Below, piece by piece: positions 1,939 to 37,167 of a stretch of DNA of 52,621 bases. The position numbers were made by a program, and so were the translations under genes. The first letter of the stretch is position 1. Every line of letters begins with the position of its first letter. This stretch comes from a virus (Duplodnaviria; Caudoviricetes): IMG/VR virus record IMGVR_UViG_3300042453_003401, positions 1 through 52,621 of that record; one strand, 5' to 3'. The notes below the pieces were generated by a model that saw only the letters and a list, made by a program, of their open reading frames with translations, ran no database searches and was not told the origin of the DNA.

Positions 1939-1980
1939 TGCGCAAGTAGTGGCTCCTGTCACTATAGCACTGTCTGAGTC

Positions 1981-14702: not shown

Positions 14703-15106
14703 CACCCTCTCCATCGTCCTCTTTCAACGATCTTATTGGTCTTCAGCATCAATGGGCAAGAAGGCCAGAAGATGGAAGCGGTTTTACTGACTGTTTTGCG
14801 CTTTGCATGGAAGTGCGAAAACGTTTAGGACTGCACGATTTCATGGAAGAGTTTGGTTGGGTGTACGAGCAGTGCCAGCCCGAAGAAATTAGCAACAAGC
14901 AAATAGTTAAATGGCTATGGAAAAACGCAAGGCAAATCGTAGAGCCACGACCGGGAGCGGTATTTTATCTTCCATCGCCTAATGGCTCTTTGGCTATGGC
15001 CGTAATCACTGACAGCCAAAACTGTCTTCTGCTGGGTCCTGGAAAGAAGGTAATATCCCTGCCTTTCGCTAAAGTGGCAAAAGGCAAATACTACTGGGCA
15101 GATTGA
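14699..15106 (+). CDS. NlpC/P60-like tail tip protein (gpK-like)
   Basis: DLIGLQHQW...GFTDCFALCMEV resembles the NlpC/P60 DC motif. The catalytic His is not evident. Confidence 0.65.
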   Translation: MTPSPSSSFNDLIGLQHQWARRPEDGSGFTDCFALCMEVRKRLGLHDFMEEFGWVYEQCQPEEISNKQIVKWLWKNARQIVEPRPGAVFYLPSPNGSLAMAVITDSQNCLLLGPGKKVISLPFAKVAKGKYYWAD

Positions 15107-18100
15107 TGAGCAATAATCTTCGCAAGCTTCTGCCGTATGAACATCAGCTAGTTGAGACGCTTGGCATCACAAAAGAACAATACTTAGAGTTTGTTCTTTT
15201 GCAGCAAGAATACACCGACATCAAGGCGGGCACTGTTTTAGATGTTAGAAATTGGGAAGTCGTCGCAATTGTCTTGGCCGTTGTTGGCATACTAGCTCAA
15301 GTGGCGTCGGCGCTTTTGATGCCGAAGCCGCAAATTCCTTCAATTACACCCCAAGGTCAGCGTCAGCAAACTCGCGATGATATTTTTGCCCCTCGCTTTG
15401 GCTTTAATACCGTCCAGAATTTAGCGAAATACGGAGATCCCGTCAACCTTATTTACACCAATACTGCTGCCAACGCAAACGGTGGCGTGAGGGTGGCCAC
15501 CTCACTGTTGTGGTCTTCAGTTAAAAGCTTTGGCAGTAGTCAGTATGTTCAAATGCTTTTGCTGCTTGGCGCTGGTGGCATTGGGGCCATTGATGCCGAT
15601 CGCACTGCTTTTGGACAAACTCCCATCCGCAATTTAATTGCACAAAACTATTGGTTGTATTTTCGCCCTAACAATACTGGCATTATTCGCGGAAATGATT
15701 TGATATATGGAGGCAATGGCGAAAGTGATCCTGCCGCTGCTGGCGTCGGCAGTCGCAACCTCTACCGTATTTCACCATCGTCATCTACTTCCGCTGGCGA
15801 CGGATTTAGCCATGCTCTTTCGCCTGCCACATCTAATCAATTTGGCCTATATTCTCCCGTGCCAATCAATGCCGATGTAATTATTCGCAATGAGGCTGGT
15901 GCGGAAGAGTCTGTTTCCAGTGGCGTTCAAGCCGCCATTACAAGTCCAAATCGTGCGGCTTTATGGGGGTCCAATCTTCCGTCTAGCACTTTGCGCTCCG
16001 TTCCTGTTGGGTCCATTCTCACTGTTACTCTTAGCGCCACTAACAAGGAGGGATTGTCAACAGTTGAGCTGGAGGCCGCCGACCAAAGACGAGCATTGTC
16101 ATCTGCATTTGACAACGCCGCCATCTTCAAACTTGGTTCGGCTAAATTTAGCGTACTTCGTGCCAACAGGGGATCCACGGAGGAGGGCGATGTAATTGTT
16201 ACATTACGTTGCATCGAACAAGGACTTGCACCAAGCGTGGCTTACAATATTTCCAATGCAAAGCAAGATGCAAAACAAATAGCGGAGAGCGATCCAACAT
16301 ATGTGTCATTAAAAAATACAGCCAATAGCCTTCTCAATGCAGATCAGCGCAGGGACATTTCTACCGCCCAAGCACTCTTAAACGCCGGCAATATTTTCGT
16401 TTATCAGCAATTTAGGACCCTCAGTTATATGCGTGGCGGAGCATTTTACTCTACCGGCACCCGACTTGTATTTCAAAGAAATTTAACTGAGGGCGAAAAG
16501 CAAGCCCTTCGCGACTTTATTACTTACGAAGAAGATATTGCGCTAGGAAATAGATCGGACAATGTTTTCTTTACCAAGGTGCTTTCAAAGGTTGAGAAAG
16601 CAAGTTACGAAACAATTTCTCCTTGTCATATTGTTGACTTGGCGATCAAGGCTAGGTCTTTTAGGCGGATTAGCGGGCGTCAAGAGGTTTATGGTAGTAA
16701 TCGCGTAGCTGGCTATCCGATTAGCGACAATGGTATTAAGCTAAGAACTGCCATGTTTTTGGTTAAGTACAAAAGATCCACCGATGCAGGGTTTTCCTAT
16801 GTCAAGGGCATTTTTGTTGTAAGACGCGCTGCTGACAATGACAATTTTGTTTACTTGCGCTTTAATTCTGGGCAGTCTGGACTTAGCAACTCATTTAATT
16901 GGCACTTTGAAATAGAAGCCGTTCAAGATACAATTGCTGAATTCAAGCAAAGCTTGTTAAATGAAGGCAATGCATATCGTTTTTTCTATGTAGAGAACAG
17001 TGGAAATGCCTCGACTATTTCGCTAGGGCAAGGCCGAACTCTTTCTTTTACGGGAAGCATTGTCAACAGTACCAATTTTTTACCTCCATTGAACAATTCC
17101 CCCATCCAAACAAACGAATGGGACTTATTTAATAATACTGCGGACACTCAGTATCAGTTTTCTTTTGACAATGGGCCAGAATTTACGCTCGGGGCTGTCA
17201 GCGAGCAAATTGTTGAGCAATTTAACAACTTTCCCGGCTTATACCAAGATGCATCGCTTGTTGGCTTTAATTTGTATTCCGGCAAGAATGTGCAGGATTT
17301 GCGTTCCTTGAGCATGTTTGTAACGCAAGGGCGCCGATCAAGACTATTACGAACTTCTGGGACTATCAATGGTGTTTCGTGGGGGCGGCCCAATTTTGAA
17401 TATCTTTCACCTGTCCCCAATGGCTTTGCAAATACCGCTCCCGACATTTTTGTTGACACAGTCCTTGACTACAACGATGGCATCGGGAAATATGCTGGCG
17501 ATTTGTTCTCAGTTGATCTTGAGCAGCTATCCAGAAGTAAGAAATTTTGTGAGGTGAATGGACTGTTCATGGACGGAGTGATTGCTGAGCCGTCTTCATG
17601 GCGAGAGTTTTGGTCGGTGCATTCTACTTTTAGCCTGCTTGAACTTGCCAAGCGCGATGGAAGGGAGACGCTTTTGCCTGCAGTGCCCTACGACGCAAAC
17701 ACTGGCGCCATTTCTAGGCAGGTGCCAATTAGTGCATTGTTCAATCAAGGCAACATTCTTGAGGACAGCTACAAAGAAGAATTTCTTGACTATGGAAGCG
17801 GCACCGAAGATATTGTTGCCACTATTATTTTCAGACAAAATGAAAGAGATGGCGTATTCCCGAAAAACAACAGTGTAGATGTGCATTTGAGCGATACCAA
17901 TGCAGATCTTGCCATTCGTGAAACCATCGACCTTTCATCGTTTGTCACTCGCAGAGAGCAGGCAATCCTCGTGGGCAAGTTTCTTTGCCAGACCAAGCGT
18001 CATTCTCGCCGCGCCCTTGAATTCAAAACGTTTCCCACGGACAGCTTTGTGGCGCCAGGAAGCTACATCTATGTGGAGCTGGCGCAGAACCAGTGGAATG

Positions 18101-18477
18101 GCATCCAGACTGGCAGCATTGGCCCTAGAGGCGCTTTGGACCTGCCCCTAGCTGGATCCATCGCCAATGGCTCGTACCAGTTTCTTCTTTACAATCCCAA
18201 CGCCACCACGTCGGGCACTATTGCATTTAATAGCGTCAGCGTTTCCAACAATACTGCATCTGCGCTTGCCGCTTACGAAGGATATATATTTGTGCTTGGT
18301 ACTAAAATTAAAAATAAGAGAGTGTTCAAGGTGACAGAAGTTGCGATGGATGAGGAAGGCGAGGTGACCGTGCGAGCCGTTGAACACGCCGTGGATGAAA
18401 ACGGACTCTCTCTAATCAGCAAAGGATTGGCGGCAAGAGTGGCTGGACTGTTTACAATTGATGGCCGTCCTGAATAA
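15103..18477 (+). CDS. Tail tip / central fibre protein (gpI/J-like)
   Basis: 1124 aa, with LAKYGDPVNLIY, LFNQGNILEDSY and C-terminal FKVTEVAMDEEGEVTVRAVEH. Confidence 0.75.
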   Translation: MMSNNLRKLLPYEHQLVETLGITKEQYLEFVLLQQEYTDIKAGTVLDVRNWEVVAIVLAVVGILAQVASALLMPKPQIPSITPQGQRQQTRDDIFAPRFGFNTVQNLAKYGDPVNLIYTNTAANANGGVRVATSLLWSSVKSFGSSQYVQMLLLLGAGGIGAIDADRTAFGQTPIRNLIAQNYWLYFRPNNTGIIRGNDLIYGGNGESDPAAAGVGSRNLYRISPSSSTSAGDGFSHALSPATSNQFGLYSPVPINADVIIRNEAGAEESVSSGVQAAITSPNRAALWGSNLPSSTLRSVPVGSILTVTLSATNKEGLSTVELEAADQRRALSSAFDNAAIFKLGSAKFSVLRANRGSTEEGDVIVTLRCIEQGLAPSVAYNISNAKQDAKQIAESDPTYVSLKNTANSLLNADQRRDISTAQALLNAGNIFVYQQFRTLSYMRGGAFYSTGTRLVFQRNLTEGEKQALRDFITYEEDIALGNRSDNVFFTKVLSKVEKASYETISPCHIVDLAIKARSFRRISGRQEVYGSNRVAGYPISDNGIKLRTAMFLVKYKRSTDAGFSYVKGIFVVRRAADNDNFVYLRFNSGQSGLSNSFNWHFEIEAVQDTIAEFKQSLLNEGNAYRFFYVENSGNASTISLGQGRTLSFTGSIVNSTNFLPPLNNSPIQTNEWDLFNNTADTQYQFSFDNGPEFTLGAVSEQIVEQFNNFPGLYQDASLVGFNLYSGKNVQDLRSLSMFVTQGRRSRLLRTSGTINGVSWGRPNFEYLSPVPNGFANTAPDIFVDTVLDYNDGIGKYAGDLFSVDLEQLSRSKKFCEVNGLFMDGVIAEPSSWREFWSVHSTFSLLELAKRDGRETLLPAVPYDANTGAISRQVPISALFNQGNILEDSYKEEFLDYGSGTEDIVATIIFRQNERDGVFPKNNSVDVHLSDTNADLAIRETIDLSSFVTRREQAILVGKFLCQTKRHSRRALEFKTFPTDSFVAPGSYIYVELAQNQWNGIQTGSIGPRGALDLPLAGSIANGSYQFLLYNPNATTSGTIAFNSVSVSNNTASALAAYEGYIFVLGTKIKNKRVFKVTEVAMDEEGEVTVRAVEHAVDENGLSLISKGLAARVAGLFTIDGRPE

Positions 18478-19938: not shown

Positions 19939-22557
19939 ATGGCGGACCAAACAATCTCCCAGCTAAATCAGCTTACTGGGGCTGCGTTGGCTGCCAATGA
20001 TCAACTTCCTATTGTTGACATTAGTGCCAGTGAAACCAAGCGCATCAATGCATCTGACTTAATTCAAAACGGCATTGCGCTTACGGCAAGTGGCAATATT
20101 GACTTAAGCAAGCTCAACCAGGCTAGTACTGTCAAGCTTGGCGCTGCTGCCATTGGCACTGGTGCAATTACGGCCATTAAGCTGGCCGACGATAGTTCTA
20201 TCGCAGAGCAAAGCACTGCTCCCACCGCTGACAATTTTGCTGGACGCGGCTGGTATCGCACAACTGATAGCAATTTTCAAGTTTATTCGGCGGGTGATTA
20301 TCGACAAATTGTAATGCCCACTGCTGGCATTGCAGACAACGCAGTTACCACTATAAAGATAGCTGACGCCGCCATTACAACTGCCAAGATCAGCGCAGGA
20401 GGGCTAGGCACTGCTGCTATGGCTGATGGCAGCATTACGACAGTCAAGATCGCGGACAGCACTGTCACTTCAGCAAAGATTGCTGACGGCACCATCGTTA
20501 ATGGTGATATTGCTGCCTCCACTATTGAAGGATCAAGACTGGCGAATGGAGCCGTAGGCACGCTCGCACTCGCAAACTCAGGCATTACTAGTGCAAAATT
20601 TGCAGCGGGATCGGTTGACAATGCAGCCCTGGCAGATTTAGCAGTTACCAATGCAAAGATTGCCGATACCACGATTGTCTATGCCAAGCTCAACCTGGCC
20701 GATGGGAGCGTGCCAGGGGCAAAAATTGCTGACAGTTCTATCACTTCTGCCAAAATTGTTGACGGCACTATTGCCACGGCAGACTTGGCGGATTCCTCCG
20801 TTACAAGCGCAAAAATAGCTACTAGTGGCGTTACGGCAGGCAAGATTGACGCAGACGCAGTTACAACTAATACCATTGCTTCTGCGGCTGTAACTGCTGC
20901 CAAGCTGGCGAGCGAATCAGTCGGCACTGCTGCCTTGGCAACCTCTGGTATTACCAGCGCCAAATTTGCCGCAGGAGCAGTCGATACCACTGCCCTTGGC
21001 GTTTCGGCGGTAACGAACGACAAAATTGCTAATGGCACCATTGCCTACGCCAAGCTTGGTCTGGCTGATGGCAGCGTGCCTGGCGCAAAGATTACCAGTG
21101 CGACTATCAGCGGGCTGCAGATTTCTACAGGGGGAGTTCTTACGGCAAACATAGCCGACTCTGCAGTGACAAATGTCAAAATTGCAGCCAGTGGTATTGA
21201 AGCCGGAAAATTGGCTGCTGATGCCGTGGTCACAGTCAATGTGGCTGACGATGCAATCACTCAAGCCAAGGTCGCTGATGGAGCCATCGGCACTGATCAG
21301 TTGGTTGACAGTGGTGTAACGGCTGTCAAGCTGGCTGACAATTCCTCTTCCATCGTCGCCGCTAACGCGCCTGTGGGGAATGGCGCGTTTGTCGGGCAAA
21401 AATGGTTTGATGACTCTACCAAGTTTGAATACACATGGGACGGAACAGCTTGGGAGCGGCAGGCCGCCATTAGCACTCTCACTTTCACCGATTCCACTCC
21501 CATTGCGTTCTCAGTTGCCTATCCAGATAATTTTTCGGCCACTATCACGACAACGCTTGACACGCAAGTTGCGAATCGCGTGTTCGCCGGACCTTCTACG
21601 GGCGCAGATGCAGCTCCTACTTTCAGAAGCCTTGCTGCTGCCGATCTACCAGTCGCCACCAGTGGCACTGTCGGCGCCGTTAGTCCGGGGGCTGGTCTAA
21701 GCGTAAGCGCTTTGGGAGTGATGAACCATAGCAACGCAGCAGTTGCTGGCACTTATGCAGGTCCTGTAACCATCGACTCGCAAGGACACATTGTTTCTGC
21801 TCAAGCAACGCTACAGGCAAGTGACATTCCAAGTCTTGACGCGAGCAAGATTACGACCGGCACCTTTGGCAGCACCTTCTTGGCGGAGAATAGCGTTACC
21901 GCCCAACAACTTGCAGACTATGGCATTGCGCAAGTTAGTGAAAGTGCCCCCACTCCTGAATTCGCTGGGCAATGGTGGATCAACCCTAATGACCGATCGG
22001 CTTACATTTGGGTGGGAGAAGTTACTCCAGTGCCTAATGGTTATTGGCTGAACCTTGGCTATGGCAGTCCCACGCAAATCAACTTGCGTTTTGGCGGCAC
22101 TTATAACGCTTCAGGGAATGTTGTTGAAAGTATCAACTCCTATGGCATTGAAGCTGGCTTGACCGTCGGCCAGGCACTATCTAGCCCCAACACAAGCAGT
22201 AACGGCATCTATTTGATCGTCACCGCTAGTGGTGTGGGCACCACTCCTGCTCCCAATGAAAATCTTGCTATTGGTAACTGGGTGCTATCGCAGGGCGTGG
22301 GTGCCACTTGGACGAAAATTAACCTCTCTAGTGCCGTGGCTGGCGTGGGTGACCAAGATGTTTTGGTCGATGGCGCTGCGCTCATTCCAGTGGCATCTGG
22401 CGTGGCAAGTCAAGAGGACTTCAACGAGCTTGTCTGGCCAAGGGTGCAAATTGCCACCAGCGGCGCTACGGGCATTGTTAGAGGATCTTCGGAAGTGGTT
22501 GTGGCATCAGGCACCGGCATTATGACCATTGGCATTGCTGACGATGGCACTTACTAA
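19939..22557 (+). CDS. Tail fibre protein with 10-residue (I/V)TxAKIADxx repeats
   Basis: N-terminus MADQTISQLNQL, a long periodic repeat shaft, and C-terminal ADDGTY. Confidence 0.8.
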   Translation: MADQTISQLNQLTGAALAANDQLPIVDISASETKRINASDLIQNGIALTASGNIDLSKLNQASTVKLGAAAIGTGAITAIKLADDSSIAEQSTAPTADNFAGRGWYRTTDSNFQVYSAGDYRQIVMPTAGIADNAVTTIKIADAAITTAKISAGGLGTAAMADGSITTVKIADSTVTSAKIADGTIVNGDIAASTIEGSRLANGAVGTLALANSGITSAKFAAGSVDNAALADLAVTNAKIADTTIVYAKLNLADGSVPGAKIADSSITSAKIVDGTIATADLADSSVTSAKIATSGVTAGKIDADAVTTNTIASAAVTAAKLASESVGTAALATSGITSAKFAAGAVDTTALGVSAVTNDKIANGTIAYAKLGLADGSVPGAKITSATISGLQISTGGVLTANIADSAVTNVKIAASGIEAGKLAADAVVTVNVADDAITQAKVADGAIGTDQLVDSGVTAVKLADNSSSIVAANAPVGNGAFVGQKWFDDSTKFEYTWDGTAWERQAAISTLTFTDSTPIAFSVAYPDNFSATITTTLDTQVANRVFAGPSTGADAAPTFRSLAAADLPVATSGTVGAVSPGAGLSVSALGVMNHSNAAVAGTYAGPVTIDSQGHIVSAQATLQASDIPSLDASKITTGTFGSTFLAENSVTAQQLADYGIAQVSESAPTPEFAGQWWINPNDRSAYIWVGEVTPVPNGYWLNLGYGSPTQINLRFGGTYNASGNVVESINSYGIEAGLTVGQALSSPNTSSNGIYLIVTASGVGTTPAPNENLAIGNWVLSQGVGATWTKINLSSAVAGVGDQDVLVDGAALIPVASGVASQEDFNELVWPRVQIATSGATGIVRGSSEVVVASGTGIMTIGIADDGTY

Positions 22558-22585
22558 GCCATTGACTCGCCATGGGAGAAAGTAA

Positions 22586-22759
22586 ATGCCTCATCGTCCC
22601 GACAAATTTGTTTACGCAGGCAAGGAAGTGCCTCCCTATGGTACGTTTGGACAAGTGCTAGTAAAAACGGCTAATGCTTTTTATTACACAGCATGGGACG
22701 ATATTGATCATATTATCAACGAAAGCGATAGCGTAATTGACGAAGGAGAATACACTTAG
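22586..22759 (+). CDS. Small fibre-associated protein (57 aa; absent from the ORF track)
   Basis: MPHRPDKFVYAGKEVPPYGTFGQVLVKTANAFYYTAWDDIDHIINESDSVIDEGEYT. Shares PxxGTxGQxLVK...YxxAW with the 27770 protein. Confidence 0.65.
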   Translation: MPHRPDKFVYAGKEVPPYGTFGQVLVKTANAFYYTAWDDIDHIINESDSVIDEGEYT

Positions 22760-22812
22760 CTTTAGAATAAAACGAAATTAACCGCCGCCTTTTGGGCTCG
22801 GCATCCATCGCT

Positions 22813-25800
22813 ATGGCTTCCACTCTTAAGCATCTTCGTTCGTCCACTGCTGATAAACGCCCTACTGCGTCGGGCCTGGTAGACGGACAACTTGCTATCA
22901 ATACCGCGTCAGGCACTCCTGCTCTGTTTTTCAAGGACAGCAACGGCGGAGTCGTAAAGGTGGGCCCCGCGCATGTGGGAAGCGCAGCCCCTAACGCGGT
23001 GCCCGCTGGTAGTGCCGGTAATTCACTGGGTGAGTTGTGGGTGGATAATAGCTTGACCACTCCTGGGTTAAATTATTACACTGGCAGCGCCTTCGTTAAC
23101 CTCACGCCTTCAGGCACGACTGCAGCAGTTGGCCTTGTTGAACTTGCCACTCCTGCCGAAACGCAAACTGGCACTGATGGCGTTAGGGCTGTCACTCCTT
23201 CTGGCCTGCAAAGCAAAGTAAGCGATAGTACAAGTACCACTAGTTCCACCACCATCGCCTCTTCTACTGCCGTTAAATCGGCTTACGACTTAGCAAATGC
23301 TGCACTGCCGAAAGCAGGCGGCACCGTTACTGGCGAACTGCTAATTGGCACGACTGGCAGCTTGGTTTTCGAGGGAAGCTCAGACGATAGTTTTGAAACG
23401 ACTATTGCCGTGACAAATCCAACGGCAGACCATACCATCACTTTCCCGAACGTGACGGGCGCAGTCGTTACCACTGGCGACTCTGGCACCGTCACCAGCA
23501 CAATGATTGCTAACGACACCATTGTTAACGCTGATATTAACAGCGCTGCTGCGATTGTCGACACCAAACTTGCCACTATCAGCACTGCAGACAAAGTCAG
23601 CGTTTCTGCTTTGAACATTGATGGAGCCACCGACATTGGTGGTGCGCTAGAGAACGGCGACCTTTTTATCGTTGACGACGGCGCTGGCGGCACAAATAGA
23701 AAAGCGCCTGCCTTTCGCATGGCGCAGCTTACCTATAGCGGTGTCACCGGAGATATTACCATTGCGTCTGGCGGCACGTCTGCTATTGGCGCTGGTGTAA
23801 TTGTTGACGCCGATGTCAACGCTTCGGCTGCCATCGCTGGCACCAAGATCAGCCCCGACTTCGGCAGCCAGACCATTACCACCACTGGCGTAGTTAGTGC
23901 CGCCCTTGGCGCTGCGGCCACACCTAGCATTACCTTCACTGGCGACCTGAATACCGGCATCTACAGCCCCGGCGCCGACCAAGTAGCCATCTCAACTAAT
24001 GGGTCGGGGTGGTTGTTTGTTAATGCGAGTGGTGTTGTAGGGATTAACGGAATAAGTACGAGCTCCGCAAGTAATAAGTTACAAGTGCTGACGGGCGGCA
24101 CCGCTTCTGACGGCCTTGGTATTTACGGGACATTTACTTCGCAAGGAGCCGAGCAAGGCGCGATAAATTTTTACGGGGCTACAAACGCAGGAGGTCCTTT
24201 AGCTTCAATTGTAAATGTTGACAATAGGGCAACATCAGGTTCTAGCAGAACAGGCAGTTTGGTTTTCAAAACCGCCGCTGGAGGTGCAAACGATGAACGC
24301 GCCCGCATCACAGCCGAAGGCCGCTTAGGTCTGGGGACTAGTAGCCCTGTTGCTGGTCTTCAAATCGGTGCGTATGGCACGCAGTTGCGGGCTGGTTCTA
24401 ATACTTACATGGTTCCAAGCGGAAACTCTTTCTGCGCTTTCAACGTAGTAGCGGGTCAAGATAACTGGATTGGCAGCAATGCTGGTGGATACAATCAGAC
24501 TTCAGGGTCTTTTAATATCTTATTAGCTGCCGGGCATCGAGACACAAATGAACCGGCCGGCTCATTTATTGGTAGCACAAGAACCGCAGCAGCGACTCAC
24601 GAAACAATCCAGATCGGCCACATGATTGGTGGTGCGACAACGGGGGCAAATTCAACAAAGGTGCCAAGGCTTACGATTGACTCGTCAGGCAACGTAGGGA
24701 TTGGCACTACTGCGCCCCAAGATTCCCTCAGCGTCTACCCAGGCGCTACAGGAGGCATTAGCCTCCTTGATTCTGTCAATAGCGTACGGTCTCGATTCTT
24801 TATTGATAACAATAGTGGCGTTTTTTCAACTGGCATTCGTACTGCTAATTACTGGATTGATTTAGACTCTAGTGGATTAAGCCAGAGTGGAATTCGCTTC
24901 TTTACCGGAACTGGTGGTATTGGCACAGGCACCGAACGCGCTCGCATCGACAGCTCCGGCAGGCTCTTAGTTGGCACGTCTACTAGCTCAACAATTGCCA
25001 GCGCTGACTTTCGCCTGCAAATTGAAGGAACGACTTATAGTAATTCAGGCGCTAGTTTTTGCACAAATAGTACGACTGCATTTCAAGCGCCTTATCTTGC
25101 TTTGGCGCGATCTCGCGGAACAACCGCAGGCAGTAACACCATTGTTCAAAGCGGCGATGCACTGGGGTACGTTGTTTTTTGTGGAGCCGATGGAAACGAC
25201 AAAGCTAGCGAGGCTGCTCGGATTGATTGCCTTGTAGACGGCACCCCCGGCGCTAACGACATGCCGGGCAGGTTAGTGTTCTCCACTACCGCCGACGGAG
25301 AGAGCGGCCCGACGGAGCGGCTGAGGATTACGAGCGCTGGATCTTTTATCTTTAACGACAATGGTATTAGCAATAATACTATAAACGGCGTCTATATTAA
25401 CAACTCGACAAGCACAGGCACTACAGCTCAGCTTATTTGTGTAAATACAGAAGCATCCGACGCAAACCCTCCTTTGTTACTTAATAGGCAAGGAAGTGAT
25501 GGCAGACTGGTTCAATTACGTCAAGCCAATACAACCGAGGGCACGATTTCGGTTTCCGGCACCACTGTCACCTACGGAGGCGGCCACCTGGCCCGCTGGT
25601 CTCAACTGCCAAATGACGAAGACCCATCAAACATATTCAAGGGAACCATCATGTCCAACTTGGACGAGATGTGCGAGTGGGGCGAAGAGGCTAACGAACA
25701 GCTCAACAAAACCAAGGTAAGCGACATTGAAGGCGACCCCAACGTGGCGGGCGTGTTTGTCTCCACTTCATTTGACAAAGATGGTCCACTGGACTTCTTT

Positions 25801-26013
25801 GTCGCAATGACAGGCGACATGATCATCCGCATTGCCGAAGGTGTAACGGTGCAGCGTGGCGACCTTCTGATGTCCGCTGGCGATGGCACCGCCAAACCTC
25901 AGGACGATGACATCATCCGCAGCAAGACCGTCGCCAAGGTAACTTCAACCCACGTCACCTGCACCTACGACGATGGCAGCTACTGCGTGCCCTGCGTGCT
26001 GATGGCTTGCTAG
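22813..26013 (+). CDS. Long modular tail fibre / receptor-binding protein
   Basis: N-terminal LRSSTADKRP...GQLAINT anchor, repeated ERARI(D/T)SSG-x-(V/L)G(I/L)GT modules, and a C-terminal chaperone-like domain (VQRGDLLMSAGDGTAKPQ...YCVPCVL). Confidence 0.85.
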   Translation: MASTLKHLRSSTADKRPTASGLVDGQLAINTASGTPALFFKDSNGGVVKVGPAHVGSAAPNAVPAGSAGNSLGELWVDNSLTTPGLNYYTGSAFVNLTPSGTTAAVGLVELATPAETQTGTDGVRAVTPSGLQSKVSDSTSTTSSTTIASSTAVKSAYDLANAALPKAGGTVTGELLIGTTGSLVFEGSSDDSFETTIAVTNPTADHTITFPNVTGAVVTTGDSGTVTSTMIANDTIVNADINSAAAIVDTKLATISTADKVSVSALNIDGATDIGGALENGDLFIVDDGAGGTNRKAPAFRMAQLTYSGVTGDITIASGGTSAIGAGVIVDADVNASAAIAGTKISPDFGSQTITTTGVVSAALGAAATPSITFTGDLNTGIYSPGADQVAISTNGSGWLFVNASGVVGINGISTSSASNKLQVLTGGTASDGLGIYGTFTSQGAEQGAINFYGATNAGGPLASIVNVDNRATSGSSRTGSLVFKTAAGGANDERARITAEGRLGLGTSSPVAGLQIGAYGTQLRAGSNTYMVPSGNSFCAFNVVAGQDNWIGSNAGGYNQTSGSFNILLAAGHRDTNEPAGSFIGSTRTAAATHETIQIGHMIGGATTGANSTKVPRLTIDSSGNVGIGTTAPQDSLSVYPGATGGISLLDSVNSVRSRFFIDNNSGVFSTGIRTANYWIDLDSSGLSQSGIRFFTGTGGIGTGTERARIDSSGRLLVGTSTSSTIASADFRLQIEGTTYSNSGASFCTNSTTAFQAPYLALARSRGTTAGSNTIVQSGDALGYVVFCGADGNDKASEAARIDCLVDGTPGANDMPGRLVFSTTADGESGPTERLRITSAGSFIFNDNGISNNTINGVYINNSTSTGTTAQLICVNTEASDANPPLLLNRQGSDGRLVQLRQANTTEGTISVSGTTVTYGGGHLARWSQLPNDEDPSNIFKGTIMSNLDEMCEWGEEANEQLNKTKVSDIEGDPNVAGVFVSTSFDKDGPLDFFVAMTGDMIIRIAEGVTVQRGDLLMSAGDGTAKPQDDDIIRSKTVAKVTSTHVTCTYDDGSYCVPCVLMAC

Positions 26014-26084
26014 ACCCAGTAACCCTACTCGCTAACGGCCCTGGCTCAACTATCTGGAATCTCCGGATGGTTGGGCTTGGCATT

Positions 26085-26113
26085 AAAAAGGGGCAGGATG
26101 TCACCCCTGCCCC
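26085..26113 (-). terminator. Terminator-like hairpin on the minus strand
   Basis: GGGGCAGG/CCTGCCCC stem with a 5-nt U-tract on the minus strand. Confidence 0.55.
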
Positions 26114-26231
26114 CATGCAACGGGATATCACCTCCGTTGCGGTGCCTTGTCAGCCGCAGCACTGTAACACCTTATAGTGGTGGGGCAGCGAGTTTGCGGC
26201 TCCTGCCCCTGGCCACAGTTCCCTAGAAACC

Positions 26232-26486
26232 ATGACAGAAAAACTTTACCCGACTGACTTTCGAGCGCTGTGCGCTGAACTGGTGGATGTTTTCGATAAT
26301 CCTTCACCCCCTCAGTACAAGGCTGATGTGCTGAATCGCGCCCGCGCCGCCCTGGCTCAGCCCGAGCCGCAGGAGCCGACGGATGAAGAGCTGTGGGAGC
26401 TTTACGACGAAATGGGAGGAGACCCAGAGGATTCCGCATGGTGCAGAAATTACGCCCGCGCCGTCCTCGCTCGCTGGGGCTCGTAG
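26232..26486 (+). CDS. Small cassette protein, TDFRALC...PTDEEL...ARAVLARWG family
   Basis: Paralogous to 42406-42672 and to the C-terminal part of 43185-43679. Confidence 0.75.
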   Translation: MTEKLYPTDFRALCAELVDVFDNPSPPQYKADVLNRARAALAQPEPQEPTDEELWELYDEMGGDPEDSAWCRNYARAVLARWGS

Positions 26487-26505
26487 TCATTCCCACTAAC
26501 CACTT

Positions 26506-26745
26506 ATGACTCAACTATCCCCACAAGCGCAGGCAGTGTTGGATGCTGTCTGCGAAAACACTGAGCCTGACTGCGACACGCAGCACTTAATCGCCGCCGC
26601 CCTTCGTGCTGCAGCGGATCTGGTAGTGCCGACAGAAATGGATCTGCCGCCCATTGCGCCTGACCTTGGGCACTTTCGACAGCACGAGCGACGGCTAACC
26701 CGCCAACGTCTTCTCGCCATCGCTGAAGAGCTTGAAGCCCAGTAG
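26506..26745 (+). CDS. Small cassette protein, LSPxAQAVL...LRAA...LAIAxELE family
   Basis: Paralogous to 41986-42180. Confidence 0.75.
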   Translation: MTQLSPQAQAVLDAVCENTEPDCDTQHLIAAALRAAADLVVPTEMDLPPIAPDLGHFRQHERRLTRQRLLAIAEELEAQ

Positions 26746-26881
26746 TCACCTTCTCTAGTGTTTTTGAGCAACGCAGGTCTGGCAGACGCATTTTTTGCTA
26801 ACCAGACTTGTTTTTTGCGCAAGGCCACTAGTCTTTGACTCTTTTATCCCCTAAGCTGACTAAGACTGTTTTTTTCACGTC

Positions 26882-27193
26882 ATGACTGATTTTTCTTGGA
26901 ACATTGCCACGATGGAGCGCACGCTCTCTGATGGCATTGTGTACACTCTTCACTACACCATTGAAGCCTTTGATGGCACCTACCGTTCATCGGCCTATGG
27001 GAGTATTGGTCTTGAGGCCCCCGAGGAGGATTCGGTTGTTCCCTATGCCGATTTGACAAAAGAAACTGTCGTGGGCTGGCTGCTCGACAAGCTTGGCGAC
27101 GAAAAGGTGGCAGAAGTTGAGGCCGCCCTTCAGGCGCAAATTGACGAGCAAAAAACGCCCACAAAGGGCACTGGCACGCCTTGGGCTAGCTAA
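26882..27193 (+). CDS. Fibre-associated protein (putative fibre assembly chaperone)
   Basis: WNIATMER...VPYADLTKETVVGW...TGTPW pattern, typical of genes downstream of fibre genes. Confidence 0.65.
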   Translation: MTDFSWNIATMERTLSDGIVYTLHYTIEAFDGTYRSSAYGSIGLEAPEEDSVVPYADLTKETVVGWLLDKLGDEKVAEVEAALQAQIDEQKTPTKGTGTPWAS

Positions 27194-27354
27194 GCTTTTC
27201 CTTTCGCACTGTCCCTCGTGGCTGTTAAAAGCAAAGTCGGAGCATCCAGCAGTAAGCGCATCATCGTTTCTCGCCCCAAAACCACGCGACAAGGGCAGGG
27301 AAAAAATAGCAAGCCAAGCCACGGACGAAAACTGTCTCGCGGGCAGGGTTGATC

Positions 27355-27378
27355 AAGGGGGGTTTCGGCCCCCTTTTT
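27355..27378 (+). terminator. Intrinsic terminator
   Basis: GGGGG(G)T-ttcg-GCCCCC followed by a T-tract. Confidence 0.7.
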
Positions 27379-27425
27379 AATACATTGCAGCAAGGCTATA
27401 ATGAAACAAACTGTGACGATGGGCG

Positions 27426-27767
27426 ATGATCTATCCCGCCACTTATGACATAGTGGTGCTGCAAAACGCCACTTATCGCATGCAGCTAACTGTCACGCAA
27501 AGTGGTGGCACCCCGATTAATCTTTCTGGATATACCATTGATAGTGATATTTGCGGAAACATTGATGGTTCAATTATTGCCAGCTTCACTCCTACTATTC
27601 TGAATGCAGCTAGTGGCGTGTTTGAGCTTGAATTGGCACCCGCGACAACAAGTGGCATTGAGACTGGTTTGTACAAATATGATGTGAGCGCAACTGCTGG
27701 CAGTGGCGATCGTTACTATTGGCTCAAGGGAGCCTGCACCGTTTCCGGCACTTGTTCTAGGAACTGA
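27426..27767 (+). CDS. Small beta-sandwich virion protein (baseplate/fibre-associated, BppU-like)
   Basis: YDIVVLQNATY...PINLSGYT...LELAPATT...YKYDV...YWLKG pattern. Confidence 0.6.
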   Translation: MIYPATYDIVVLQNATYRMQLTVTQSGGTPINLSGYTIDSDICGNIDGSIIASFTPTILNAASGVFELELAPATTSGIETGLYKYDVSATAGSGDRYYWLKGACTVSGTCSRN

Positions 27768-27769
27768 TC

Positions 27770-28672
27770 ATGAGCGACATCAACATTACTATTGTTAGCG
27801 GCGAAACCACGGAGCTGGAGCTTTCTATTCCTGGCGTGCAGGGACCAATTGGTGGCGATACGATGCCATCTGGAGGCACTGCTGGCCAAATCCTTGTTAA
27901 GCAAAGCGTTGTTGATTATGACGCCGCTTGGACTTCCCAGGCTTCCGGCTTAATTCTTAATGCCACCACTCTTTCTGGCGTTACTGTTCAGGGAACAATC
28001 TCTGGCGGCACTTACACATCGTCAACTATTAACAGTGCAGCAATTAACACGCCGGCAATTGTTAGCGGCACAATTGATTACACGGCCATTTCTGATGCAG
28101 TAATTGACCAATGCACGATTGACAATTCGACCTTTGAAGATGGCACAATCTTTAATATTACGCTTTCTGGCACTATTAGCAACGTTGCCACGGTAACAAG
28201 CGGCACTTACGACCTCGCTGTTGTTACATCGCCCACGTTGACTGCCGGTACTATTTCAGGCACCACGATCAATGCATCGACCATTCAAGGCGGCATTGTT
28301 TCTGGAGCCACCCTTCATGCCAGCGGAGCGACTATTGAAGGCTCCACGATCACGGGAGGCACTGTTTCAGGCATTACGCTTTATGCCAGCGGGGCCACGC
28401 TAGATGCCGCGACCATCAATGAAGGCACTAGTTCTGGTACCACTTTTTCCGCTTCCATTGTTCTTTCTCCCACTGTCTCCGGCACTGTTTCCGCTGGCTC
28501 TGGCCTAGTAATCGGCGATGCCTTGGATGTTTTGGGGTTCTACGGGGCCAGCGCAGTGGTGCAGCCTTCTGGCATTGTCATTCCAAGTGGTGGGTCCACT
28601 GTTGACGAAGTGCTTGTGGCGCTGAGCGGCGTGATCGTTGCGCTTACTGACTTGGGGCTCATTGGGCCTTGA
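27770..28672 (+). CDS. Fibre-like protein with S/T/G/I-rich short repeats
   Basis: GVQGPIG, PSGGTAGQILVKQSVVDYDAAW, a low-complexity shaft, and C-terminal LGFYGASAVVQP...ALTDLGLI. Confidence 0.65.
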   Translation: MSDINITIVSGETTELELSIPGVQGPIGGDTMPSGGTAGQILVKQSVVDYDAAWTSQASGLILNATTLSGVTVQGTISGGTYTSSTINSAAINTPAIVSGTIDYTAISDAVIDQCTIDNSTFEDGTIFNITLSGTISNVATVTSGTYDLAVVTSPTLTAGTISGTTINASTIQGGIVSGATLHASGATIEGSTITGGTVSGITLYASGATLDAATINEGTSSGTTFSASIVLSPTVSGTVSAGSGLVIGDALDVLGFYGASAVVQPSGIVIPSGGSTVDEVLVALSGVIVALTDLGLIGP

Positions 28673-28720
28673 CGAAAGGGTTACTGGCCACTAGGCTTTG
28701 CTTGGTGCCTCTACTTTTCC

Positions 28721-28969
28721 ATGGCCTTCGTCAACTCAATTTCCTTTTCCCATCGTTTTTCTGACGATGGCGTGATGCACGACACTTGCTCGTACCAAGA
28801 AATCAATCACACTTACAGCGCCGACACCGCCACTGCACTGGCTAGAGCATACTTTCAGTTTATGGTGGCATGCGGCTATGCCCCGCAAAGTGTTATTGAA
28901 GGCATGTTGTGCATTGGCACTGAATACGAACAGGCTTATTGTTACGATGGAGAGAAAGCTAAGGATTAG
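28721..28969 (+). CDS. Hypothetical protein
   Basis: ORF with the pyrimidine-rich leader typical of this genome. Confidence 0.55.
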   Translation: MAFVNSISFSHRFSDDGVMHDTCSYQEINHTYSADTATALARAYFQFMVACGYAPQSVIEGMLCIGTEYEQAYCYDGEKAKD

Positions 28970-28971
28970 TC

Positions 28972-30204
28972 ATGGGGCAAATTGTGCGCGGTGGTGAGCA
29001 GTTTGAAACTCACATTGAGGCTGATCATCGCGGGCAAATACTCGCCAAGGGCCCCGACAGTGGCGCTCTTGATGCTTTTGGTAGACAACGCTTTAGCGAG
29101 CCGTTCACTTTGTTTGATTCGGCATTGCAATACAGTAAGCGCACCGATCTGTGGGACGAACAAGCTGTAGGTACCGGAAGCACTCTTTATCTGCCAAATG
29201 AAAGCTCCTTGGAGTTAAATACCACCACTGCGTCTGGAGATACAGTGTTGCGGCGCTCCAAGCGGAGCCTGCCTTATCAGCCGGGCAAAAGCTTGATGGT
29301 GCTGGCTAGTTTTGTTGGCAATGCTCCCACGGATGGCCTGGTGCAGGAGATTGGCTTTTTTAACGACAACAATGGTGTAATGTTGAGAGCAAGTGGCACG
29401 ACCATTTCGTTCGTTGTTCGCAGTAAAGCAACAGGAACAGTGGTAGAGAACATTGTCCCTCAGTCGTCGTGGAATATTGACACTTTTTCTGCCTTAAATT
29501 TTTCAAAAGCTAATATCTTCACTGCCGACTTGGAATGGCTGGGGGTGGGGCGCGTAAGGTGTGGATTCGTTGTTGACGGAGAAATTAAATATTGTCACGA
29601 ATTTAACCATGCCAACACGATTGATAGTGTTTATATGACATCGGCAACATTGCCAGTGTCTTATCGAATTCACAATTCTTCTTCCATCGCGGCTAATGCA
29701 TCGTTAAGGCAGATTTGCACTGCTGTTGTCAGCGAGGGTGGTTATCAGCCAACGGGGCCCATCTATATAGCTGGTCGAGGAGTGGGAACATTTACTGCTA
29801 TCACTGCGGAAACGCTTGTAGCAGCTATTCGCATTGCTAGCGGTCGCACCGATAACGTGATAATTCCCGCTCAAATTGATGCCAGTATAGGCGGAAATCC
29901 AGCTTCTAATGTTGTCGCGCAATGGCGACTACGGCTTAATCCAACCATCAGTGGCGCATGGACTGCTGCTAGTAATGGCAGGGGAAATGTGGAAGTTATG
30001 AGCAGCGGCACTTTTTCTGGTGGCACTGTTATTGGAGGAGGTTTGGTCGCATCGCGCAGTAGTATTGAATTTGACCCCGAAAGCGGACTCGCCTTAGCCC
30101 TTGGCAGCACCATTGACGGTACTAGCGACGTTATAGCTTTGACTATTCAATGCAGCGCCAGCGAGCAGGCTACAGGGCTGCTGGGGTGGAGAGAAGTTGT
30201 CTGA
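28972..30204 (+). CDS. Conserved phage beta-rich protein (DAFGR...YQPGKS...EWLGVG family), probably virion-associated
   Basis: DAFGRQRFSEPFTLFDS, YQPGKS, DLEWLGVGRVRCGF and SEGGY motifs. Confidence 0.6.
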   Translation: MGQIVRGGEQFETHIEADHRGQILAKGPDSGALDAFGRQRFSEPFTLFDSALQYSKRTDLWDEQAVGTGSTLYLPNESSLELNTTTASGDTVLRRSKRSLPYQPGKSLMVLASFVGNAPTDGLVQEIGFFNDNNGVMLRASGTTISFVVRSKATGTVVENIVPQSSWNIDTFSALNFSKANIFTADLEWLGVGRVRCGFVVDGEIKYCHEFNHANTIDSVYMTSATLPVSYRIHNSSSIAANASLRQICTAVVSEGGYQPTGPIYIAGRGVGTFTAITAETLVAAIRIASGRTDNVIIPAQIDASIGGNPASNVVAQWRLRLNPTISGAWTAASNGRGNVEVMSSGTFSGGTVIGGGLVASRSSIEFDPESGLALALGSTIDGTSDVIALTIQCSASEQATGLLGWREVV

Positions 30205-33163: not shown

Positions 33164-33521
33164 TTGGCTCGAACAGTTCTGAAGGACCTTGTCTGACGGA
33201 GGGCATGGGACAAAAGCCATCTGTGCATTCTTCTTCCAAGCCCAAACTTTCTCGCATGATGGCTAGCACTTTCGTCGCCGTGTCATTGGCTTTCACTTCT
33301 TCTGTCTCGACCATAGCAATTAAGCGATCCAGGTACCACTGAGCCTTTTTGAGGTCTTGAGCGCCATTTTTCATTTCATAGCGCCAAATGTATTTCAGAA
33401 TGTTGCCCTTGAGCATGCCCTTAAATGCTTCTCCGCTCATGGAAGCCTCGATAGCTTCGATGGCTTCGATGGCGCCGCTGGCATAGTGCGACGGACTGTT
33501 CACGGGATCGTGCATGATCAA
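33156..33521 (-). CDS. DUF3310 (SaV-like) protein
   Basis: DPVNSPSHY...IEAIEAI...GNILKYIWRYEMKNGAQDLKKAQWYL. Confidence 0.85.
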   Translation of the reverse strand: MIMHDPVNSPSHYASGAIEAIEAIEASMSGEAFKGMLKGNILKYIWRYEMKNGAQDLKKAQWYLDRLIAMVETEEVKANDTATKVLAIMRESLGLEEECTDGFCPMPSVRQGPSELFEPIN

Positions 33522-34231
33522 AATTGGTAATTGTTGGTTTCAAAAGCCGCAAAGGCTTCAGGAGCGATGGGGCGAGCAAGCTCTAACAAAGCCTCGGCAT
33601 AGGCCACGATTTCATACTGAGCGCCCTTGCCAATGCGAAGGCTGATGAAATGCAGCAAAGCCTGCAGCGAGCATGTCCAGACAAAACTGGTGTACATGGC
33701 AGGAGGCAGAATAGCTCGAGCCTGCTCCTTGCTCACTCCCATTGCAATCAGCTCCTCATAGGCCGCCTTGGCCGTCGCTACGCCTTGCACATAGAAGAGC
33801 CTGGCCCTTGACTGTGCGCTGGTGCTAACGGGGCCTGCAGACGCTTGACGGTTGCTCTCCGATTGTCCTAGGAACTGGTCAGGCATGTAAAACTGAGCAT
33901 CTTCCGCTGAGCAATAGCGGAAGCTCTTTTCGTTCCAGCCAAGTTGATCGTCAACGTAAGTAGAAGCGACAGTGTGCTTCCACCATTGACGAGCAACAAA
34001 CAAAGGCGCCTTCACCTGCCACTTGAACACCACGCCACGAAATGGGCTTGTGTGGTGCTCACGAGCAAGATAGTTGAGAAGCTTTTCGTCCTTCTCATCC
34101 CATTGCTCTTTTCTGTTGTCAAAGCTTTGACGAGCATCGTTTACCACGGACAAACTATTGCCCATGGAGTCGATGAGAGCCACGAGGCTCTTGCCGTCTT
34201 TAAGGGGATCAATGGAAGGGAAATTAGTCAT
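33518..34231 (-). CDS. thyX: Flavin-dependent thymidylate synthase
   Basis: HHTSPF, APLFVARQWWKH, WNEKSFRY, KEQARAILP, FISLR and AQYEI motifs. Confidence 0.93.
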   Translation of the reverse strand: MTNFPSIDPLKDGKSLVALIDSMGNSLSVVNDARQSFDNRKEQWDEKDEKLLNYLAREHHTSPFRGVVFKWQVKAPLFVARQWWKHTVASTYVDDQLGWNEKSFRYCSAEDAQFYMPDQFLGQSESNRQASAGPVSTSAQSRARLFYVQGVATAKAAYEELIAMGVSKEQARAILPPAMYTSFVWTCSLQALLHFISLRIGKGAQYEIVAYAEALLELARPIAPEAFAAFETNNYQF

Positions 34232-35466: not shown

Positions 35467-36060
35467 CTACACGGCAGCTAGCTGTACTTTAGCCCCTTGG
35501 TTCTGGTAGTGGCCGGAATAAGCCTCTTCCACAGCACCATCGAGCTGGTAAAGCATCACCTGTACAATTCCTTCGTTCGCATAGATGCGAGCGGGAAATG
35601 CCGTGGGATTGGCAATGTGCATGGTGAGATGGCCGGCCCAGCCAGGTTCAACGGGCGTCACGTTGATGATGATGCCACAGCGAGCGTAGGTGGACTTTCC
35701 ATCGCATAGCCCCATGATGGACGGAGGCATAGAAATCAATTCCAGGCTTACGCCAAGGCCAAAGCTATGGGGAGGCAGGACGAACCAACTTCCATGGGGA
35801 CCATGATTCAGACAAGCTTCATAGCCAGTGATTGGCATGAGCTTAGGGTCAAGCGTTGGCTTGCTTTTCCCTTTGTAGTCTTTCCCATCGAAAATCAAAA
35901 ACTGGTCAGGCGACAGGCGAATGTCATAACCTGCCTGGGAAAGGCCATACGAGATGGCCTTGGTTCCACAGTCAAGCGATCGTCGCTTTTCGCCTACGAA
36001 AGGAAGGAAGATGTCCAGCTCTGCGAGCTTGGCAATTTCCTTGTCGTAGAGCAGGCTCAT
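35467..36060 (-). CDS. dcd: dCTP deaminase
   Basis: ISYGLSQAGYDIRL, GKSTYARCGIIINVTPVEPGWAGHLT, IYANEGIVQ and YQNQ motifs. Confidence 0.92.
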   Translation of the reverse strand: MSLLYDKEIAKLAELDIFLPFVGEKRRSLDCGTKAISYGLSQAGYDIRLSPDQFLIFDGKDYKGKSKPTLDPKLMPITGYEACLNHGPHGSWFVLPPHSFGLGVSLELISMPPSIMGLCDGKSTYARCGIIINVTPVEPGWAGHLTMHIANPTAFPARIYANEGIVQVMLYQLDGAVEEAYSGHYQNQGAKVQLAAV

Positions 36061-36362: not shown

Positions 36363-37127
36363 TTACCCCCTATCCATGGTGAGCGCAAATGCCTTGCCTC
36401 CTGGGTAGTGGTCTTTGAAATATCTCTTAACAGTGTCTGCCGTGATGCGCTGCTGGTTGATCAGTTCAAAGCCATCAAGGTGGACGAGCTGCAACGACGA
36501 CTCGCTTTCTTCGTTTTCGGGGTCGTAGCAGGCAATAACGCACCATGCCTCATCAATGGGTTGCTGGTACATTTGTTCTACTGCCATGGAATAGGCACCT
36601 AGCTGCCGCTTGTAGTCGGCCAGTTGGTAGTCAGGTTTCTCCTTGTAGCTGGTCTTCCAATCGACCAGAGCAATGGCGCCGCCGGTCATTTGCGCCACCA
36701 TATCGAGCGTGCCTGAATAGCCAATGCCAAGGCCGGCGTCATACCAGGCCACGGCACTTTCCACCAGTAGCGGCTCTTGAATGCCCTCCAAAAATGGCTC
36801 TACTGCTTCAAAGTAGGGGCGCCAGTCAGGAGCTTTGTCAAGGTGGTGCTCAATATCTTCCCCGTCGAAATGATCTTCCAGTACACCATGCATCCAGGTG
36901 CCACGGTTGGCTGCAAGGCGGGTGCGGCGATTGGCTTCATCAGCTCCCACACGCTTGCGCCAGTTAATCAGGGCCATCACCTTTGCTACGGGAGCCATGG
37001 CCGAAAGGAAGGTAGTGACGGAAGGCAGGACGATGCCCTCCGGCACATTGGGAAACCCTTCGTTGATGTAGTGGCGTTTGCCGTTGAGGCTGATGCGCTT
37101 CGGCTCAAACTGCTCAAACGAAGGCAC
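36363..37127 (-). CDS. PD-(D/E)XK exonuclease (recombination-type)
   Basis: LPSVTTFL, WRKRVG, RGTWMH, GTLD...VDWKTS...QLGAY. Start set at GTG 37127 because a separate small ORF occupies 37168-37299. Confidence 0.85.
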   Translation of the reverse strand: MPSFEQFEPKRISLNGKRHYINEGFPNVPEGIVLPSVTTFLSAMAPVAKVMALINWRKRVGADEANRRTRLAANRGTWMHGVLEDHFDGEDIEHHLDKAPDWRPYFEAVEPFLEGIQEPLLVESAVAWYDAGLGIGYSGTLDMVAQMTGGAIALVDWKTSYKEKPDYQLADYKRQLGAYSMAVEQMYQQPIDEAWCVIACYDPENEESESSLQLVHLDGFELINQQRITADTVKRYFKDHYPGGKAFALTMDRG

Positions 37128-37167
37128 GGTGGCTGCCAAACAAAGGTCTAGACAAGCCACTGTACCG

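Follow-up and report, generated by a model that had tools for sequence, protein, structure and literature searches.

Introduction

In T-even bacteriophages, conserved motifs of the fibre and adhesin proteins gp37 and gp38 (glycine-rich ones, for instance) separate hypervariable segments and serve as crossover points (Tetart 1996, 1998, as related in PMC3157838). This is the closest described system to the one analysed here, a tail-fibre gene carried by a Caudoviricetes record of the IMG/VR collection (IMGVR_UViG_3300042453_003401). The record is linear and 52,621 nucleotides (nt) long, with 50.6% G+C and an estimated completeness of 73%; it was analysed in full and is referred to hereafter as the window. 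Five short conserved linkers separate the variable modules of the fibre gene, and each of them includes one copy of the 15-bp motif TAG-N9-CTA. The comparison of related sequences indicates that the linkers are real mosaic junctions, at which modules are probably exchanged between phages in the T-even style, by homology-dependent recombination between linkers that are keyed to their position. The TAG-N9-CTA motif is most likely a by-product of the conserved linkers and not a signal or the mark of a new recombinase system.

T-even fibres and adhesins resemble the present gene in several respects: short conserved motifs alternate with hypervariable segments, the order of the motifs is conserved, natural chimeras are joined in or beside the motifs, and recognition modules are shuffled without a dedicated recombinase. 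The differences lie in the hosts, which are here freshwater and marine Synechococcus, in the phages, which are of the siphovirus and podovirus types, and in the repeat, which is ERxRIxxxG-h-G-h-G-T. The linkers, known from sequence alone, are also peculiar in being 16-100 nt long and in having their synonymous sites in common between phages of different families and habitats. A further point of comparison is offered by annealing proteins, which recombine diverged DNA and generate phage mosaics according to PMC5499656 and PMC3945230. As in Rad52-like or Sak-dependent mosaicism, a Sak protein and a PD-(D/E)XK exonuclease are encoded here and the blocks are bounded by short, sometimes imperfect homology; the cases described there concern temperate enterobacterial and staphylococcal phages, whereas Sak is at the present linkers a presumed actor.

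Short repeated sites bordering segments for alternative receptor-binding ends are shared by this locus with the Gin/Cin/Pin invertases (Mu, P1) and the Rci shufflon (R64). In those systems the recombinase gene adjoins the segments, the sites of about 19-26 bp have long conserved arms and occur as inverted pairs, and pieces of open reading frames (ORFs) lie on both strands. In contrast, no recombinase gene, long arms, inverted pairs or two-strand ORF pieces were found here. The inverted repeats returned by the search for invertible segments were all imperfect, with lengths of 14-27 nt and 70-93% complementarity, and among ORFs of at least 40 amino acids (aa) in 20000-30000 the longest reverse-strand one overlapping the fibre gene encodes 145 aa (23283-23720; not compared to fibre families). 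Diversity-generating retroelements likewise diversify the receptor-binding part of tail fibres and need a reverse transcriptase together with a template/variable repeat pair; here, by contrast, the window has no RVT_1 match, and in the repeat search the fibre end was not part of any long pair of direct repeats. Concerning cyanophages, a cyanopodovirus comparison notes only that the fibre-gene tree is discordant with those of other core genes (PMC4646655), and no description of these linkers or of the TAG-N9-CTA motif was found in a literature search of limited coverage.

Linkers and modules of the fibre gene

In the fibre protein, five variable modules bounded by linkers lie between an anchor part at the N-terminus and a conserved domain at the C-terminus (coordinates are collected in Table 1). 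Its true start is probably the ATG at 22813, the listed TTG at 22792 being too early, since homologues align from residue 8. The region 22700-27000 was compared with 80 related IMG/VR loci using blastn. Five sharp islands of DNA similarity emerged, each with one TAG-N9-CTA site near its 3' end and with zero cover between them. The islands are 80-100% identical to fibre genes of cultured Synechococcus phages, and the proteins are 31-42% identical over the aligned part. The linkers encode the end of a conserved fibre repeat, ERxRIxxxG-x-h-G-h-G-T-S/T, and were not detectable as DNA repeats of one another in a repeat search.

The island of linker A is made of 13-27 high-scoring segment pairs (HSPs), and its cover is zero past 24050. 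Joints of the lake contigs described below finish there at 24000-24002, and near-identical blocks stop or start at its site type in three pairs of loci (L008/L023, L008/L009 and L006/L018). At linker B, contig pieces start at 24319 or 24326 and stop at 24342-24349; at linker C, joints begin at 24686-24694 and finish at 24711-24717. Linker D is covered by up to 53 HSPs and includes 36 nt that are 100% identical to phage S-CBP42; its DNA motif is displaced by one codon from the protein register of sites 2 and 3, joints begin at 24926-24939, and one finishes at 24982. Linker E is covered by up to 48 HSPs and includes 88 nt that are 88.6% identical to S-CBP4, with joints beginning at 25234.

Mosaic junctions

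Near-identical blocks (at least 90% identity over at least 200 nt) were identified among the related loci. Once 11 of the 98 block ends, whose locus has no site, had been dropped, 87 unique ends were left; 19 of these are no more than 30 nt away from a site, the figure for randomly chosen places being 3.4%. The mosaic breakpoints that a first-pass annotation of this DNA had proposed to look for at the sites of homologous fibre loci do therefore occur there above the random level. When only the ends located in or next to fibre ORFs are considered, 17 out of 60 unique ends fall at -5 to +26 nt of the site start, about 3% being expected from site density; this tally corresponds to about nine events, each counted from both partners. 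A 293-nt block shared by L008 and L009 at 99.7% identity extends from the base that precedes the TAG in a VAIST-type site to the last base of an LGLGT-type site. Likewise, the 99.7-100% identity of L008 and L025 to L029 begins exactly at the TAG of an LVFST-type site. The other 43 ends are off-site, many of them at the start of the C-terminal domain or just past the stop codon.

Additional junctions were obtained from contigs of four other lake metagenomes aligned to the window at 95% identity or more; stretches without contig cover were not counted as evidence. Among the 15 joints listed (beyond which there are 19 further joints and 48 further loose ends), 11 leave the window sequence 0-9 nt past a CTA arm. 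The return takes place at TAG or at most 9 nt upstream of it in 4 of these 15 joints; for 7 of them it lies 29-42 nt ahead of site 4 or site 5, the latter points being the 5' edges of linkers. One contig of 1351 nt (X7) retains 23812-24342 and 24933-25261 with 491 foreign bases in between, and another join leads from 23979 to 24943 via 36 other bases, bypassing a site. Anatomy, conservation, junctions and gene content are here matters of observation: near-identical modules sit between unrelated neighbours and their boundaries lie at linkers. With 17 of 60 block ends on a site and 11 of the 15 joints listed at 0-9 nt past CTA, the earlier claim that the sites mark module junctions is borne out. 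Junctions also occur at linkers without arms, which bear block ends in 4 of 39 cases compared with 12 of 43 for linkers with arms (Fisher P 0.054, the rows not being independent).

Frequency of the motif in the window

All seven sites of the first-pass annotation are present where it placed them, and they account for 7 of the 11 copies of the motif in the record, within 23984-26757. The five sites inside ORF 22792-26013 have one codon phase in common, xTA Gnn nnn nnn nCT Axx, and force GTA or TTA codons; they encode the peptides described, here extended by one residue to VAISTN, LGLGTS, VGIGTT, LVGTST and LVFSTT. The TAG of each of the two downstream sites is indeed the stop codon of a small ORF, and the TAA variant at 26020 follows the fibre stop (26011-26013). 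The 11 sites of the whole record compare with 5.25 (standard deviation, sd, 2.4) in dinucleotide shuffles, 2 of 100 of which reached at least 11. When spacings of k=0-20 are compared in the fibre gene, k=9 alone is prominent with 5 sites; k=11 has 4 and the others at most 2. The motif is present in 5 of the 17 eligible in-phase hexapeptides of the gene and is produced by codon choice, not by the peptide alone: synonymous shuffles of the whole gene contain 0.89 sites on average, 5 or more being reached in 6 of 5000, and in 0 of 5000 when shuffling is limited to the central part.

The predicted k=9 enrichment consequently holds over codon-preserving shuffles, but is lost once the choice of the pattern is corrected for. 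When 64 trimers are combined with 21 spacings as inverted arms, TAG/9 ranks third in the fibre gene, after TAA/4 and CCC/9, and an equally extreme inverted-trimer pattern is found in 43.7% of 1500 synonymous shuffles of the gene. As the motif was picked post hoc, the window alone is no proof of non-random arms. DNA hairpins or cruciforms at the seven sites were considered and rejected: the folds amount to 0 to -3.2 kcal/mol, and only site 5 differs from its shuffles (7 of 200 as stable).

Conservation of the linkers as DNA

The homologous fibre ORFs matched were 87 in number, of which 10 were dropped as exact duplicates or N-containing sequences. The remaining 77 unique ORFs contain 150 sites, 146 of them in the same phase, against 42.3 in synonymous shuffles (sd 5.9, maximum 60 of 300 shuffles), and these sites fall in the same peptide families as the window linkers. 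Of the 86,016 X-Nk-Y patterns compared in these homologues, none is as over-represented as TAG-N9-CTA (150 versus 42.6), the runner-up being GCA-N17-GTG (141 versus 41.6). Twelve cultured phages have 19 sites for 7.26 expected, a number reached in 0 of 1000 shuffles. All five site types are present in S-CBP3, in the order of the window, four in S-H1 and three in S-LBS1; S-CBP2, S-RIP1, S-N03, P-SSP2 and Sf-CH8 have none. The site counts in homologues and in cultured phages, which are not independent, show that linkers are inherited or exchanged as DNA. At identical residues, codon identity with 16 homologues is 533/885 (0.60) in linkers and 781/2002 (0.39) elsewhere, so that the linkers are conserved as DNA, beyond the protein level. 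This synonymous conservation spans the whole islands, from -13 to +15 codons. Of 78 ORFs, 62 have a string of linkers compatible with the order A, G, D, E, and linkers are common to lake, estuarine and marine Synechococcus phages of both the podovirus and the siphovirus types, synonymous sites included.

Judged by the same alignments, the TAG and CTA arms are not special with respect to the neighbouring synonymous positions. The picture of fixed arms around a variable spacer given by the first-pass annotation is contradicted by the pooled linker families, in which the arms are kept in 283/394 cases (0.72) and the commonest codon in 373/558 (0.67) at the spacer and 625/1033 (0.61) at the flanks. 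The non-arm codons TCC, GCG, CGG and ACG occur in linkers at 4.9-7.7 times their gene-wide usage, and non-arm linker codons are fixed as strongly as the arms or more. Free synonymous change of the arms, which had been named as an outcome that would speak against the shuffling system, is seen in homologues: only 18 of the 43 linker peptides of the 12 cultured phages have the motif, 25 being without arms, and S-CBP1 uses CTG or GTC together with ACC or ACG for its seven linker peptides, which have 0 arms. The motif is a reading of the linker DNA itself, in which an xTA codon (Leu or Val) and a G-starting codon are followed by ACT or TCT and an A-starting codon.

The fibre end and the small downstream genes

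The C-terminal domain is the most conserved part of the fibre; its end is cysteine-rich, and its identity to the fibre ends of Roseobacter phages amounts to 52-57%. Such conservation is odd for a receptor-binding tip, and this part may be a folding or chaperone domain. It contains no TAG-N9-CTA, yet its start and its stop codon are frequent block ends. The fold prediction gave a poor model (mean pLDDT 62.9, residues 48-120 below 50) for which Foldseek returned nothing in the PDB at E up to 0.001, the best matches of this poor model being phage decoration and head-fibre proteins at E 0.085-0.09. No solved structure matched the fibre by sequence at E up to 0.01.

Similarity to most loci stops just past the CCTACTC element that follows the fibre stop (26014-26040), and this element may delimit the exchangeable end of the fibre on its 3' side. 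In the 13 aligned loci its left arm is TAA (6), TAG (6) or AAG (1), and its right arm CTA (7), TTA (2) or other (1), 3 loci not being covered at this point. The left arm of site 6 is TAA in one of three loci (L035); at site 7, three of six loci have CTA as the right arm and the other three TTA, CTC or ATA, with the spacer kept. Taken together, the three intergenic elements have a conserved spacer and variable arms (left TAG/TAA/AAG; right CTA/TTA/CTC/ATA), which is the reverse of the fixed arms that had been described. At sites 6 and 7, TAG is a stop codon embedded in a conserved sequence at a gene boundary.

The two small ORFs belong to no Pfam or PHROG family, and their paralogy was ruled out (E 9.6). 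Contig pieces in X5, X7 and X10 start exactly at 26743, and contig breaks at 26236 and 26173 bracket the small ORFs. The suggestion that small downstream genes are exchanged is in agreement with these data: the genes are replaced between conserved boundaries, one of which begins exactly at 26743. Between these boundaries, from the fibre gene to the DUF7936 gene, related loci have small genes that are sometimes similar and sometimes different, and the region resembles a moron or cassette slot.

The intergenic stretch 26075-26249 has many G+C hairpins, including a 10-pair stem at 26089-26114. Positions 26170-26254 are common to 13 loci at 83-93%, and L035 matches the whole of 26075-26249 at 82%. 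The conserved stretch reaches the ATG of the first small ORF, with contig breaks at 26173, 26202 and 26236, and may be the conserved 5' boundary or regulatory leader of a variable cassette. Within 25900-27000, no Rfam family was found at E up to 1 and no promoter-like site by scanning; two terminator-like hairpins are present, both on the minus strand and within shuffle expectation.

Recombination functions

By its family matches, the putative exonuclease is one half of a phage homologous-recombination pair, the other half being the Sak annealing protein. Two genes of nucleotide metabolism are located near this pair, also on the minus strand: the ThyX thymidylate synthase (33518-34231) and a dCTP deaminase-like gene (35467-36060). 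The families PF00589 (Phage_integrase), PF00239 (Resolvase) and PF00078 (RVT_1) have zero matches in the record, which is judged 73% complete; the search for the first two agrees with the earlier statement that no recombinase was recognised. The HNH gene looks like a free-standing homing endonuclease, to go by its sequence. It has no homologue in 92 fibre-centred loci, a weak test as these reach only about 3 kb on each side.

In S-LBS1 and in 6 of the 80 loci, the fibre gene is followed by a gene for an S-LBS1-type tyrosine integrase. Its copies are 66-80% identical to that of S-LBS1 and lie 0.1-2.7 kb past the fibre (L001, L016, L026, L036, L037, L043 and L089, the latter being S-LBS1); in L037 the integrase directly follows sequence homologous to window positions 26743-26833. 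The S-LBS1 integrase is treated as a lysogeny gene in PMC6157547. No homologue of it was found in the window record, and the phage may be a lytic relative, or the record incomplete.

Competing explanations

The explanation that we consider probable is a homology-dependent one. Modules would move between co-infecting phages by recombination inside the 16-100 nt linkers, and the exchange would be carried out by the phage exonuclease and Sak annealing protein or by the host RecA. Selection would then retain only in-frame, foldable junctions, and the order of the modules would be held constant by the linker-specific sequences, as every linker has its own. A number of observations weigh against this explanation. 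Linkers B and C share only about 16-30 nt at 95% identity or more, which is short for homologous recombination. Five otherwise dissimilar linkers have both arms in common, a coincidence that has to be accepted, and the motif is first of all the X-Nk-Y patterns in homologues (150 versus 42.6 among 86,016). Site 4 retains its arms despite the shifted protein register, and armed linkers carry more block ends, with the P value and the dependence between rows given above. Moreover, the edge of a conserved stretch is the only place where a block can end, so that crossovers are resolved to linker length; the lake contigs are assemblies and not single molecules; and the exchange is inferred, recombination not having been directly observed.

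A simpler account would dispense with linker DNA altogether. Protein constraint and selection would act on random rare or illegitimate recombination, only the junctions at joints would survive, and the arms would be due to chance. It can draw on the 43.7% of 1500 shuffles that leave the arms unsupported after correction for pattern choice, on S-CBP1, S-CBP2, S-RIP1 and S-N03, which encode the same linker peptides with other codons, on the junctions that do not coincide with a 15-mer (among them 43 of 60 block ends and the join that passes from 23979 to 24943 through 36 bases), and on the boundaries of the C-terminal domain, which are junctions without a site. Selection on the protein does not explain, however, why codon identity is 0.60 in linkers and 0.39 elsewhere, or why stretches of 36-88 nt are 89-100% identical while the fibre proteins are otherwise about 37% identical, and we regard this account as unlikely. 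Slow translation was also considered: Leu and Val codons ending in TA would slow the ribosome at module boundaries and aid folding, the CTA arm being incidental. Codon 0 is indeed TTA in 38 of 53 members of the LVGTST family (0.17 gene-wide) and GTA in 23 of 23 of the VAISTN family (0.19 gene-wide), and the LVFSTT family alternates between TTA (12) and CTA (11) with TA kept. On the other hand, S-CBP1 has CTG or GTC at all 7 linkers, the main alternative in the LVGTST family, TTG, loses the TA, and other codons of the islands are equally fixed, common ones included, which makes this possibility very slight.

The first-pass annotation had proposed a dedicated recombinase or nickase with TAG-N9-CTA as its core site, by which modules and cassette genes would be cut and rejoined. 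In favour of such a system, blocks start with base precision at the T of TAG (L008 and L025 versus L029; contigs at 24326 and 26743) and end with the same precision at the A of CTA (L008/L023, L008/L009 and the joint at 24982), the motif ranks first of the 86,016 patterns in homologues, armed linkers hold 12/43 block ends versus 4/39, and candidate enzymes exist in the HNH protein and in the S-LBS1-type integrase found past the fibre in 6/80 loci. Against it, the arms are conserved no better than neighbouring synonymous sites, their free change in 25/43 cultured linker peptides weakens the proposal on its own terms, and in the intergenic elements the variation lies in the arms and the conservation in the spacer. 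Neither a tyrosine or serine recombinase nor a reverse transcriptase or a homologue of the S-LBS1 integrase was found in the record, and the HNH gene is without a homologue in the 92 fibre loci, within about 3 kb on each side. There are neither invertible-segment repeats nor alternative opposite-strand ORFs, and no stable DNA fold at the sites. An integrase downstream of the tail fibres is in the usual lambda-like position. Three-base arms are, to our knowledge, far shorter than those of any known recombinase site, and we know of no way in which they could confer specificity. With unfixed arms and no tyrosine or serine recombinase match in the record, recombinase or nickase core sites are very improbable. 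A related scheme, in which the linkers would be dedicated exchange signals and a nuclease or nickase (the HNH protein or the fibre-adjacent integrase) would recognise TAG-N9-CTA and initiate exchange at module borders, appears just as far-fetched; in its favour are the base-exact junctions, the first rank among 86,016 patterns, the register shift at site 4 and the roughly threefold excess of block ends at armed linkers. Homology-dependent exchange at the linkers is the reading retained.

Genomic context

The gene layout of the record is that of a long-tailed phage (Table 1). The relatives of the fibre are Synechococcus phages at both the DNA and the protein level, and parts of the stretch were found in 24 lake or freshwater metagenome runs from 21 studies, 3 of them with 96-98% of the sampled words and 21 with 30-49%. 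On these sequence matches, the source of the window is read as a freshwater cyanophage. The first fibre gene has a repeat of its own at 20339-21295, of about 30-50 nt in 6-9 copies at 60-81% identity, which encodes a motif of the K-I-A-D-G-T-I type and of which a single copy is found in the second fibre gene (23486-23535).

Table 1. Positions of the features discussed in the text (window coordinates)
Feature	Position	Strand	Remarks
HNH endonuclease	1423-2349	-	308 aa, free-standing; opposite strand among head genes
Head maturation protease	3241-4434		
Major head protein	5012-5917		
Tape measure protein	9845-13777		1310 aa
J-like tail protein	15103-18477		
First fibre gene	19939-22557		
Tail-fibre gene	22792-26013	+	1073 aa from TTG 22792; phrog_18345 (1.4e-54), phrog_9942 (8.6e-48)
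Linker A	23930-24035	+	...GIYSPGADQ-VAISTN-G...; site 1 at 23984-23998
Linker B	24319-24349	+	island 24320-24350; ...ERARITAEGR-LGLGTS; site 2 at 24326-24340
Linker C	24680-24717	+	island 24680-24710; ...LTIDSSGN-VGIGTT; site 3 at 24695-24709
Linker D	24920-24990	+	...ERARIDSSGRL-LVGTST; site 4 at 24968-24982
Linker E	25220-25340	+	island 25220-25335; ...VDGTPGANDMPGR-LVFSTT-ADGESGPTERLRITSAG; site 5 at 25274-25288
Conserved C-terminal fibre domain	25535-26013	+	37-67 HSPs; mean column identity 80%, 29 sequences
Element past fibre stop (TAA variant)	26020-26034	+	core CCTACTC kept in 13/13 aligned loci
Small ORF, acidic	26232-26486	+	84 aa; TAG stop is left arm of site 6
Site 6	26484-26498		
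Small ORF, acidic	26506-26745	+	79 aa; TAG stop is left arm of site 7
Site 7	26743-26757		
DUF7936 gene	26882-27193		
PD-(D/E)XK exonuclease	36363-37211	-	PF12705 1.4e-08; phrog_298 exonuclease 1.5e-48
Sak-type (Rad52-like) single-strand annealing protein	37623-38591	-	PF06378 SSAP_Sak 1.6e-17; phrog_8492 6.5e-45

Significance

No new recombination enzyme or class of DNA site is revealed by this analysis. If the linkers were dedicated signals after all, a programmed shuffling of fibre modules would be common to cyanophages of different families. Tail fibres set the host range, and the fibre gene described here is an unusually clean natural example of exchangeable modules. It extends the 'conserved motif' model of the T-even phages to cyanophages and pinpoints the boundaries of the modules, the positions of which aid both the planning of ordinary host-range experiments on laboratory strains and the reading of metagenomic fibre diversity.

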